Below, piece after piece: positions 59,571-60,653 of a DNA stretch of 64,000 bases. The DNA is from a virus. Made by a program: the position numbers and the translations under genes. The notes under the pieces are model-generated. The model searched no databases. It was not told the origin of the DNA and saw only the letters and a program-made list of their open reading frames with translations. The stretch is from positions 1,009-65,008 of IMG/VR virus record IMGVR_UViG_2857898870_000003. One strand, written 5' to 3'. Position 1 is the stretch's first letter, and each line of letters starts with the position of its first letter.

Positions 59571-60653
59571 CTATTGTATTTCTTTAAATACCCCTCCAGC
59601 TAATTTGTAATATGTATCCGCCTTTATCTTCTCCCCATCAACAAATTCCGTTTTTACGCAAACGGGGATATATCTTTGCTTTTTATCAGAATAAGACCAT
59701 TCGGATAATGTTATCCATGATCCTTTTGAGGCTTTTGCTACAGAGTTAATACCTGCGCACATGATGACACAGCCTTCGCCTGTGCTGTCTATCTTGGCAC
59801 CGTAGCCGGATGATCCTATCTTGGCATAGTCGCCGGATGATCCTATCTTGGCATAGTTGCCGGATGATCCTATCTTGGCACCGTAGCCGGATGATCCTAT
59901 CTGGGCATCGTCGCCGGATGATCCTATCTTGGCACCGTAGCCGGATGATCCTATCTTGGCACCGTAGCCGGATGATCCTATCTTGGCATAGTTGCCGGAT
60001 GATCCTATCTTGGCACCGTAGCCGGATGATCCTATCTTGGCACCGTAGCCGGATGATCCTATCTGGGCATCGTCGCCGGATGATCCTATCTTGGCACCGT
60101 AGCCGGATGATCCTATCTGGGCATAGTTGCCGGATGATCCTATCTTGGCATAGTTGCCGGATGATCCTATCTTGGCATAGTTGCCGGATGATCCTATCTT
60201 GGCACCGTCGCCGGATGATCCTATCTTGGCACCGTCGCCGGATGATCCTATCTGGGCATCGTTGCCGGATGATCCTATCTTGGCACCGTAGCCGGATGAA
60301 TTATCCTTTATGCTCGTTTTTATTTTTTCAGGTGATGTGATCTCTTTTAGCCACTCAACTCCAAGATTGATCATGTCAGCCAATTTTAACTCTGCTTTTA
60401 TTTTTATTTTCGAGGAGCAAATCTTTGTCCCTCTATCCTTCTTGGATATATTTCCGTCTTGCTCTACTTCGCAAAACCTAGAGTCTATCATAGTATAGTG
60501 ATCAAAAACATCAAACGGGCTTTCGCAAGCGTGAAATCCTCTGTTACACACCTTGATCTCTCCATCCATCTCATATTCCTTGCCTATTTCATATTGAAAA
60601 TCCCGGCATTTTAAATTTTTGTCAAATCCCTTGTAAGATTTTATAGCAACCAT
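59571..60653 (-). CDS. Protein with 18-19 tandem 9-aa repeats (IGSSG-x-x-A-K/Q) flanked by unique N- and C-terminal domains (360 aa)
   Basis: Encoded by 19 near-identical 27-bp DNA repeats at 59786-60299. Variation is confined to the two x residues (N/Y/D/G) and K/Q. Confidence 0.6.
   Translation of the reverse strand: MVAIKSYKGFDKNLKCRDFQYEIGKEYEMDGEIKVCNRGFHACESPFDVFDHYTMIDSRFCEVEQDGNISKKDRGTKICSSKIKIKAELKLADMINLGVEWLKEITSPEKIKTSIKDNSSGYGAKIGSSGNDAQIGSSGDGAKIGSSGDGAKIGSSGNYAKIGSSGNYAKIGSSGNYAQIGSSGYGAKIGSSGDDAQIGSSGYGAKIGSSGYGAKIGSSGNYAKIGSSGYGAKIGSSGYGAKIGSSGDDAQIGSSGYGAKIGSSGNYAKIGSSGDYAKIGSSGYGAKIDSTGEGCVIMCAGINSVAKASKGSWITLSEWSYSDKKQRYIPVCVKTEFVDGEKIKADTYYKLAGGVFKEIQ
59786..60299. repeat. 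Tandem array of about 19 copies of a 27-bp unit (gccggatgatcctatcttggcaccgta and variants)
   Basis: Read directly. Units differ only at 3-4 positions. In-frame within CDS 59571-60653. Confidence 0.9.

Follow-up and report, generated by a model that had tools for sequence, protein, structure and literature searches.

RIIB is known as an anti-RexAB counter-defence protein, and CARD/gasdermin defence systems also sense it; its mechanism is still unclear (PMC10312443). In T4 it is an early, non-structural protein with an HTH-like N-terminus, a middle region and a C-terminal domain, and is paired with rIIA. A second point of reference is E. coli YdhT (NCBIfam NF007410), the product of a chromosomal oxidoreductase operon, in which a solenoid of the 9-residue motif A-x-I-[AG]-S-x-G-x-x is followed by a C-terminal cap. 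Among phages, the proteins of PHROG 4433, such as gp53 of Salmonella phage ES18, SEN22_35 and ALY08205 of Pseudomonas phage phi2, combine an N-terminal domain, 9-aa repeats with a variable residue pair (x1x2) and a C-terminal cap at an early-operon site. TALE proteins, with their repeat-variable diresidues, likewise consist of tandem units that are nearly identical save for two adjacent hypervariable positions, and contingency-locus VNTR proteins gain or lose copies in frame by slippage or recombination. The phage gene described here shares its three-part architecture, early site and variable x1x2 repeats with the PHROG 4433 proteins.

The window, a stretch of 64,000 nucleotides of viral DNA, holds on its minus strand a complete ORF at 59571..60653 (360 aa plus stop, ATG start), which is a real gene; an identical protein is present on NCBI contig CYXP01000007.1. 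It encodes a DUF7666 domain, linker helices, an array of 9-aa units and a C-terminal cap. The array (59787..60299, minus strand; aa 119-289) comprises 19 tandem units of 27 bp, each translating as SSG-x1-x2-A-(K/Q)-IG, a count that rests on the draft assembly GCA_001405935.1, in which 513 bp of repeats may have defeated short reads, if these were used. Both TRF, which returns a single array of period 27 (18.9 copies, 59789-60299, score 812), and a pattern search, which finds 19 units at 59787-60299 against an expectation of 0 from 100 shuffles, bear out the near-identical 27-bp repeats reported in the initial annotation. The final unit has two mismatches to TCATCCGGC-NAC-NNT-GCC-NAG-ATAGGA, which the other eighteen match exactly. 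Only four of the 27 nucleotide columns (10, 13, 14 and 19) vary. These are first or second codon positions at which every change among the 19 units is nonsynonymous; no synonymous variation was found within the array. The x1x2 pairs are YG (8 units), NY (5), DG (2), DD (2), ND (1) and DY (1), the same six that had been listed before. Variation had also been placed at two residues per unit: x1 and x2 stand, but the K/Q position, already written into the earlier motif, varies too, making three.

Several familiar kinds of repeat were considered and set aside. The array is not collagen-like: the residues at every third position are G, G and A, there is no Pro, and the Pfam Collagen match stays at 10.8 bits (E 0.43) against a cutoff of 27.2. 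It does not look like the target of a diversity-generating retroelement either, as no copy of the unit with up to 3 mismatches occurs outside the array in the 64 kb, and the variation is not adenine-specific, with invariant adenines persisting within the units. A CRISPR array is rejected because the units abut one another within a conserved ORF.

The protein is by sequence a clear member of Pfam DUF7666 and PHROG 4433. It matches PF24703 (DUF7666) over aa 4-96 (120.3 bits vs a cutoff of 27, E 5e-35, profile positions 1-94 of 95) and phrog_4433 over aa 3-358 (E 6.7e-51). A homolog search, which the initial annotation had recommended, opened up a large phage family: the N-domain matches 4766 clusters at 50% identity (E<=1e-3), spanning phages of Bacteroidota, Proteobacteria, Firmicutes and Cyanobacteria, and the family is also present in the Rheinheimera Barba myoviruses. 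Its members are named merely 'hypothetical' or 'DUF7666' in their source records; a literature search recovered no paper mentioning DUF7666, and searches for the repeat peptide, or for nonapeptide repeats together with prophages, returned nothing relevant. We also noticed that such arrays carry mistaken labels, namely CRISPR, collagen-like, C-type lectin or ADP-ribosyltransferase; the record of a Vibrio phage lists a homologous array as CRISPR spacers.

The N-domain, variable 9-aa units, C-terminal cap and early context are common to the window protein and seven phage homologues. The two residues after the Gly are variable in homologues from phages of Salmonella, Pseudomonas, Vibrio, Acinetobacter, Blautia, a cyanobacterium and Rheinheimera, and the same two positions recur on the backbones IGSSG, SAATNTG, GASSNTG and GAATASG and on the 5-mer NTG. 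Across phages of six bacterial groups, and in the 5-aa repeat version, x1 is N, D or Y, and x2 is lineage-specific. Compared with the ES18-type homologues, the window protein differs in its backbone (IGSSG..A(K/Q) as opposed to SAA(T/S)NTG..), in its x2 alphabet (G/D/Y/N as opposed to Q/R/W) and in the additional variable K/Q position. The conserved N-domain family, the family-wide variable positions and the scrambled unit order reported below go beyond what the initial annotation had described.

The DUF7666 domain (60366..60644, minus strand; aa 4-96) has the invariant columns K8, F10, C16, C36, G39, H41, C43, P46 and Y53, which give an invariant Cys-Cys-His-Cys set and a C-x-x-G-F-H-x-C motif. 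We propose, for the first time and with moderate support, that it is remotely homologous to the C-domain of RIIB. In an hhalign comparison, the DUF7666 profile aligned with RIIB aa ~210-310 over 88 columns (E 1.4e-4, probability 52%) with a score of 30.7, as against 6-20 for permuted controls. Of 11 RIIB C-domains, three match PF24703 (best E 0.019), and no other Pfam family is matched by two or more of them; Foldseek against BFVD yields matches to three RIIB models at E ~0.01. T4 RIIB itself gives no match to PF24703, and a scan with the single RIIB protein returned only close T4 relatives. The T4 RIIB C-domain aligns end to end with DUF7666 at the profile level and has Y-K, G, C-x-x-G-[FL]-H, Y/F and K motifs in common with it, the Cys-to-His motif of the RIIB family reading C-S-x-G-L-H, but two of the DUF7666 cysteines, C16 and C43, have no conserved counterpart in RIIB. 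The likeness extends to both being early, non-structural phage proteins. T4 RIIB differs in its N-terminus and middle region, in having no repeat rod and in its pairing with rIIA; neither the full RIIB architecture nor an adjacent rIIA-like partner gene was found for the window protein. The similarity is remote and we do not claim membership of the RIIB family for it.

A linker (60300..60365, minus strand; aa 97-118), which by AF2 secondary structure consists of the end of a helix at 91-105 and a second helix at 108-114, joins the N-domain to the array. Beyond the array, degenerate rungs lead into a conserved cap domain (59574..59786, minus strand; aa 290-360; phrog_27197 at aa 264-359), which is retained in all homologues compared and represents a module also found in E. 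coli YdhT. The YdhT sequence shares with the window protein both the solenoid and the ...Y-x-L...F-V-E ending; however, it has an unrelated N-domain and degenerate repeats that are not homogenised, besides its different operon. The window protein falls short of the YdhT equivalog NF007410 (106 bits vs a 300-bit cutoff; aa 172-306 on profile positions 79-213).

AF2 models the DUF7666 domain at a pLDDT of ~90 and the C-terminal rungs and cap at 86-95; with close homologues only, the pLDDT was 50. The repeat region is predicted as a regular succession of strands and turns of 4-5 residues each, that is, as a two-stranded beta-solenoid rod, in agreement with the solenoid that the initial annotation had guessed at and wished to see modelled. 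In this model, each 9-residue unit probably forms half a rung, with K-I-G-S as the strand and S-G-x1-x2-A as the turn. The variable residues, earlier taken to be surface-exposed, sit in the turns of the predicted model by DSSP and, should a unit indeed be half a rung, would run along the rod's narrow edges. Foldseek found no significant match in the PDB; the best structural matches of the predicted solenoid include RTX beta-rolls. Inspection by eye revealed no evident secretion signal or signal peptide, and the cytoplasmic setting among early-operon genes speaks against export by type I secretion.

The copy-number variation anticipated in the initial annotation is seen among close relatives, whose arrays have 8-19 units with lengths in 9-aa steps, much of this evidence being short-read assemblies that are able to collapse such arrays. 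A contig with 100% identical 3-kb flanks, itself a k141 metagenome assembly, has 13 units against the 19 of the window, and by our calculation the lost block is flanked by ~98 bp of identity. Further afield, we count 11 units by eye (10 by the strict pattern) in ES18 and ~22 by eye (20 by the strict pattern) in SEN22, and multi-megabase Salmonella contigs carry arrays of differing length. In a Serratia evolution experiment, a 54-bp (2 x 27) deletion arose in a gene annotated as 'YdhT' (PMC12505973). The near-clonal isolates of the Barba phages show no array variation. BF1-TP2, the sole close phage in GenBank, has a record broken inside the array with junk at both ends.

The variation goes beyond length. 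Relatives that differ in their end domains by no more than 1 aa have completely scrambled, unrelated unit orders. It is these four nucleotide columns that vary in each of 5 loci, and the differences in the flanks are mostly synonymous, which points to purifying selection on the gene. At least two different x1 residues occur in 220 of 221 arrays, and in the Bacteroidales set the other single-step codon neighbors of x1 (His, Ser, Thr, Ile and Lys) are almost missing. A statistical test on the arrays finds unit order to be near random; a search for a period-2 (rung-stacking) signal in x1/x2 order gave only weak deviations (YY at lag 2, z -3.6) and no clear ladder rule.

The gene lies in an early/recombination block apart from the virion module, as had been recognized earlier, with divergent HTH genes upstream and Erf and NinB downstream; in a scan of the neighboring ORFs, domains were limited to these HTH and Erf/NinB types, the rest being ORFs of <=159 aa with no Pfam match. 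In ES18, gp53 directly follows the N-like gene 24 and precedes cIII/kil/erf in the PL operon, with its own putative terminator downstream. The homologues in SEN22, phi2 and fLi-Aba02 have a similar setting, and that of SEN22 adjoins an annotated superinfection-exclusion gene. In the Blautia, Vibrio and Pseudanabaena phages, the homologue is inside replication or DNA-metabolism gene blocks.

We infer that the gene encodes a cytoplasmic accessory protein made early by a temperate Bacteroides phage, with an early counter-defence or host-interaction function and a rigid, fast-evolving binding rod, a reading to which we give an even chance. Mechanistically, the 27-bp units would be kept near-identical by mutual recombination or slippage, and the same process would add, delete and reshuffle units in frame, while the few polymorphisms at x1, x2 and K/Q would persist, such that every lineage comes to have its own array. 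Such rapid change between otherwise identical phages hints at a part in the arms race of phage and host. We likewise infer selection for this heterogeneity. The turn residues combine N/D/Y with G/Y/N/D in the window protein and N/D/Y with Q/R/W in Proteobacteria. Such a composition is typical of protein-binding hot spots, which suggests that the rod may be a fast-evolving binding or evasion surface. The rod could then present or regulate the RIIB-like domain early in infection, in counter-defence or host takeover. A bolder version, which we hold to be rather improbable, would make DUF7666 the temperate-phage counterpart of RIIB: a RIIB-like effector mounted on a recombinationally scrambled solenoid with an antibody-like diversifying Tyr/Asn/Asp(/Trp/Arg/Gln) surface, with in-frame repeat shuffling as the diversity generator of an intracellular counter-defence or sensor-evasion protein.

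The most serious rival, unlikely but a real contender, is that the array is a rigid spacer or oligomerisation rod between functional end domains, and its variation a neutral by-product of slippage and recombination. The near-random unit order, which argues against a sequence-specific 'code', is equally compatible with weak constraint, and the wide copy-number range shows no apparent constraint; degenerate-repeat relatives and YdhT, moreover, accept many residues at x1/x2. By our estimate, the four variable sites are too few for the missing synonymous polymorphism to be significant alone, and the lack of fixed synonymous differences between arrays is in keeping with low phage divergence. Such neutrality is harder to reconcile with the recurrence of the same two variable positions on differing backbones, always with N/D/Y at x1, with the heterogeneity at x1 of nearly all arrays although all else is homogenised, and with the near-absence of the neighboring codons' residues from the Bacteroidales set.

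Quite improbable is the idea, put forward in the initial annotation, of a prophage-expressed superinfection-exclusion or defence protein, whose variable rod would recognize components of incoming phages. The gene does adjoin the immunity region, as the SEN22 homologue adjoins its exclusion gene; in ES18 the gene takes up the position behind gene 24, with a putative terminator of its own after it, and specificity domains in defence proteins are typically hypervariable too. Against this, the ES18 gene is within the repressor-controlled PL operon, and a PADLOC defence-system search, which does not cover anti-defence proteins, gave no match. The RIIB-like N-domain, RIIB being a counter-defence protein, together with the presence of the family in the Rheinheimera Barba myoviruses, which are not known to form lysogens and where exclusion by a resident prophage thus seems unlikely, favors counter-defence or host interaction over prophage-encoded exclusion.

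A modular recognition code, in which each x1x2 pair would read a single element along a linear nucleic acid or repeating polymer in the manner of TALE RVDs or PPR/PUF proteins and each array would specify a different target, we regard as very improbable. N, D, Q, R, Y and W are the alphabet of base recognition and stacking in PUF/PPR/TALE proteins. Repeats that are almost the same but for exactly two neighboring hypervariable residues from this small alphabet, a pair kept even in the 5-aa repeat version, do evoke such a code. TALE units are helical and of 34 aa, as opposed to 9 (or 5) aa in a predicted beta-solenoid. Against a code, the rung spacing of ~4.8 A typical of beta-solenoids would fit poorly to nucleic-acid geometry, and no cognate repeated target was found within the 64-kb window. 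The scrambling or truncation of arrays between phages with identical flanks, or in otherwise near-identical genomes, also makes a fixed code unlikely. As for the VNTR surface antigens, the window protein is not a surface antigen.

An artefact of short-read assembly as the main source of the array or its variability is hardly credible: the broken BF1-TP2 record and the 13-unit metagenomic variant, with its ~98 bp of identity around the lost block, speak for it, but the array is present in hundreds of independent assemblies, including ES18, SEN22 and the multi-megabase Salmonella contigs, relatives differ in unit composition beyond unit number, and the 54-bp deletion arose during an experiment. 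The RTX beta-roll pattern consists of 3-residue strands and 6-residue turns. The RTX-type calcium binding implied by the comparison in the initial annotation is already largely refuted and close to negligible, as the predicted 4-5-residue strands and turns depart from that pattern, the units lack GGxGxD and have their hydrophobic residue out of register, 3 of 19 units have Asp at the calcium position, PF00353 (HemolysinCabind) gives no match at E<=1 and RTX matches in a PDB sequence search are not significant (E 0.057 or worse); from RTX and curli CsgA-type solenoids alike, the window protein further differs in its globular-capped rod, early-gene cytoplasmic context without an evident secretion signal, and repeats homogenised at the DNA level.

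Taken as a family, these proteins are very numerous, with thousands of sequence clusters across phages of four bacterial phyla, and include members in well-known phages (ES18, P22-like phages and Pseudomonas prophages), in an early-operon slot typical of accessory and anti-exclusion genes. In practical terms, the array breaks short-read assemblies, as in the BF1-TP2 record. Across phyla, arrays homogenised at the DNA level nevertheless hold on to a few alternative residues at two turn positions, so that each lineage's protein is unique. If the link to RIIB is true, the small DUF7666 proteins may offer an easier route to studying the RIIB-type domain, and if DUF7666 is indeed a counterpart of RIIB, it would offer a new handle on the mechanism of RIIB.

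The minus-strand ORF at 59571-60653 encodes a 360-aa protein that is a real, conserved early gene product with a three-part architecture and, in kind, a tandem-repeat solenoid or VNTR protein. The ORF list gives it exactly the coordinates of the initial annotation, and the 27-bp array described there was recovered by both Tandem Repeats Finder (period 27, 18.9 copies, 59789-60299, score 812) and a pattern search, which found 19 units at 59787-60299, as counted in the draft assembly, against none in 100 shuffles. It is the sole strong array, and the rest of the 64-kb window holds no other large tandem repeat. 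In register, the unit peptide is SSG-x1-x2-A-(K/Q)-IG, x1 and x2 being two adjacent variable residues, and re-reading the units returned the x1x2 pairs originally listed. In the 18 full units, variation is limited to nucleotide columns 10, 13, 14 and 19 of 27; the changes in all four are nonsynonymous, and synonymous sites are all invariant. A 176-aa repetitive antisense ORF (59810-60340, plus strand; MILSWHSRR...) and a series of matches to sigma-70-like promoters within the array both stem from the repeat and are not independent features.

The window DNA forms part of a 320-kb bacterial contig (CYXP01000007.1 of GCA_001405935.1) and is, therefore, a prophage. A repressor-like HTH gene on the plus strand (63608 onward) faces the minus-strand operon of the target, whose other members are an HTH_17 gene, a number of small ORFs, an acidic ORF of 40 aa, Erf (58580-59239, minus strand) and NinB/DUF1367 (57261-57695, minus strand). 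The nearest GenBank phage, Bacteroides phage BF1-TP2 (PQ571263; 96.7% nucleotide identity in the flanks), has the homologous block annotated as Erf, NinB and RusA, with the repressor and integrase on the opposite side; this labeling, together with the operon content, supports the earlier placement of the gene in the early region. The very acidic ORF directly 3' of the target (MRDIYIKDPDGEPEYDGEEDNEEYEESMEELRFLFDSYNW; 59419-59541, minus strand) has a gene call at the same position in the related loci L010, L013 and L015, and may be a partner protein of the target. After NinB, this prophage and its relatives carry an HNH/NUMOD4 homing-endonuclease-like gene, found at 6777-7083 of L010 (window DNA), some 2.7 kb downstream of the target.

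DUF7666 (Pfam) covers residues 4-96 (E 5e-35), and the whole protein matches PHROG 4433, of unknown function. A search of 1.84 billion representatives with the N-domain alone matched 4766 clusters at 50% identity. Source records label members no more specifically than 'hypothetical' or 'DUF7666 domain-containing', and we found no mention of DUF7666 in the searchable literature; DUF7666, PHROG 4433 and YdhT are catalogued, if uncharacterised, families. K8, F10, C16, C36, G39, H41, C43, P46 and Y53 are invariant across diverse members, and the C-x-x-G-F-H-x-C motif may combine with C16 into a metal site or catalytic center. Full-length homologues are encoded by phages of Salmonella (ES18 gp53, SEN22), Pseudomonas (phi2), Vibrio, Acinetobacter, Blautia and a cyanobacterium (Pan4), always in a neighborhood of early, replication or recombination genes; the ES18 gene is part of the PL operon, where it immediately follows the N-like gene 24 and precedes cIII, kil and erf.

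All these homologues share a common plan, DUF7666 followed by near-identical 9-aa units and a conserved C-domain, with variation confined to the same two post-Gly residues. Position x1 draws on N/D/Y (rarely T, H or F), and x2 on G/D/Y/N in the target's lineage, S/Y in a second Bacteroidales-like set and Q/R/W/C in the Proteobacteria and Firmicutes lineages; in six other phages, DNA variation falls on the x1 codon's first base (A/G/T) and on the x2 codon. In the Rheinheimera Barba myoviruses, DUF7666 is instead fused to 26 five-residue NTG-x1-x2 units with the same alphabets, as in Barba18A gp041 (L016 3986-4963; Pfam Pentapeptide_2; x1 N/D/Y/F, x2 R/Q/W/L); three isolates share an identical copy of this gene, and a fourth is 3 nt away. 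Extreme variability restricted to set positions recurs across phyla. Some relatives and E. coli YdhT carry degenerate forms of the 9-residue motif, [IV]-x-S-S-G-x-x-A-x, and the window array is therefore a homogenised form of an ordinary solenoid repeat. The chromosomal ydhT of K-12 (b1669; L012 6748-7560), in the ydhYVWXUT oxidoreductase operon, encodes this degenerate 9-residue solenoid and the same C-terminal cap, but an unrelated N-domain; hence, the rod-plus-cap module is not phage-specific.

The rod is predicted to be a solenoid. AF2 with close homologues only gave a pLDDT of 50; with a 102-sequence alignment spanning three lineages, it reached about 90 for the N-domain and 81-95 for the last rungs and C-domain, with 40-60 for the central repeats. 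In this model DSSP finds 4-5-residue strands (K-I-G-S) alternating with turns (S-G-x1-x2-A), which would place x1 and x2 in turns and K/Q at strand entry; structural matches, among them an RTX-like adhesin domain, suggest two units per rung. Foldseek against the PDB returned nothing significant.

Against viral models, Foldseek retrieved other DUF7666 proteins and three RIIB or 'lysis inhibitor' proteins (E about 0.01), and in an hhalign comparison of the DUF7666 family profile with T4 RIIB the C-x-R-G-[FL]-H-x-C motif lined up. At the profile level, 11 aligned RIIB C-domains matched a 164-sequence DUF7666 alignment end-to-end over 88 columns, T4 RIIB residues ~210-310 (E 1.4e-4, probability 52%, score 30.7, against 9.7 for reversed and 6.3-20.2 for 30 column-permuted controls). 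DUF7666 was the sole Pfam family with more than one match among the 11 RIIB C-domains (3/11, best E 0.019), and a local HMM gave real RIIB domains as many as 11.8 bits, with reversed decoys not exceeding 2.5. Structure, motif, profiles and cross-hits together make homology of DUF7666 with the RIIB C-terminal domain probable, a link that we did not find in the searchable literature. RIIB is required to overcome RexAB and alone suffices to trigger CARD/gasdermin defence systems, by a still unclear mechanism (PMC10312443).

Among the 120 closest relatives, whose aligned columns are 84-99% identical, arrays hold 8-19 units, with protein lengths stepping by 9 aa, in keeping with the copy-number variation originally anticipated. 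A metagenome contig with 13 units matches the window at 100% in the 3-kb flanks to either side and is unchanged in the N- and C-coding parts; the difference is the clean removal of six units between two YGK-DDQ-YGK blocks of identical sequence, albeit in a short-read assembly where an artefact is possible for this single case. In relatives differing by at most one residue in the N- and C-domains, the unit sequences are different throughout. At four other loci, variation falls on the same four columns or a subset (one locus adds one synonymous variant), and coding differences in the flanks are mostly synonymous. At least two different x1 residues are present in 220 of 221 distinct arrays. In an evolution experiment, Serratia symbiotica clone LT-05 underwent a 54-bp deletion (2 x 27) in a gene of 1413 nt that automatic annotation had named 'putative protein YdhT' (PMC12505973, Table 2), a label also borne by at least one phage member of the DUF7666 repeat family; this is possibly a family member changing copy number in real time.

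Such arrays have also shaped database records. The BF1-TP2 'complete genome' is linearised within the homologous array (L001 1-660, L002 5717-6351), its ends carrying an ~80-nt poly-C run and adapter-like sequence, and a single gene is split into its gp83 ('c-type lectin precursor') and gp1. In Vibrio phage 1.185.O (MG592551; L007 4360-4577) a homologous 27-bp coding array is annotated as four 'CRISPR spacers', a mis-annotation that the repeat itself brought about.

We posit that recombination or slippage among units homogenises and reshuffles the array, with the adjacent Erf annealing protein a plausible catalyst; no further copy of the unit lies outside the array in the 64-kb window, making a DGR-type template unlikely. 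Selection would maintain x1/x2 heterogeneity. The chief alternative is a neutral spacer whose variation is tolerated. Prophage-expressed exclusion, raised by the initial annotation, is less likely. Unit order approximates a random permutation, lag-1 whole-unit identity being mildly enriched (z 3.3), and a TALE-like code is likewise less likely. RTX calcium binding is disfavored as well: the RTX membership suggested by the initial comparison fails on motif, Pfam and context. As for an assembly artefact, also less likely, 9-aa length stepping is seen in two other lineages, including Salmonella isolates on multi-megabase contigs.

Neither the conserved variable diresidue of DUF7666 repeat proteins nor the scrambling of their arrays between near-identical phages was found in the searchable literature. 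The variable sites combine Tyr, Trp and Arg with Asn, Asp, Gln, Gly and Ser, a composition typical of protein-binding hot spots and minimalist antibody paratopes. Given this composition, the RIIB-like domain and a location in the early operon, the target is best read as a counter-defence or host-interaction protein, whose rod would provide a fast-evolving binding or evasion surface.
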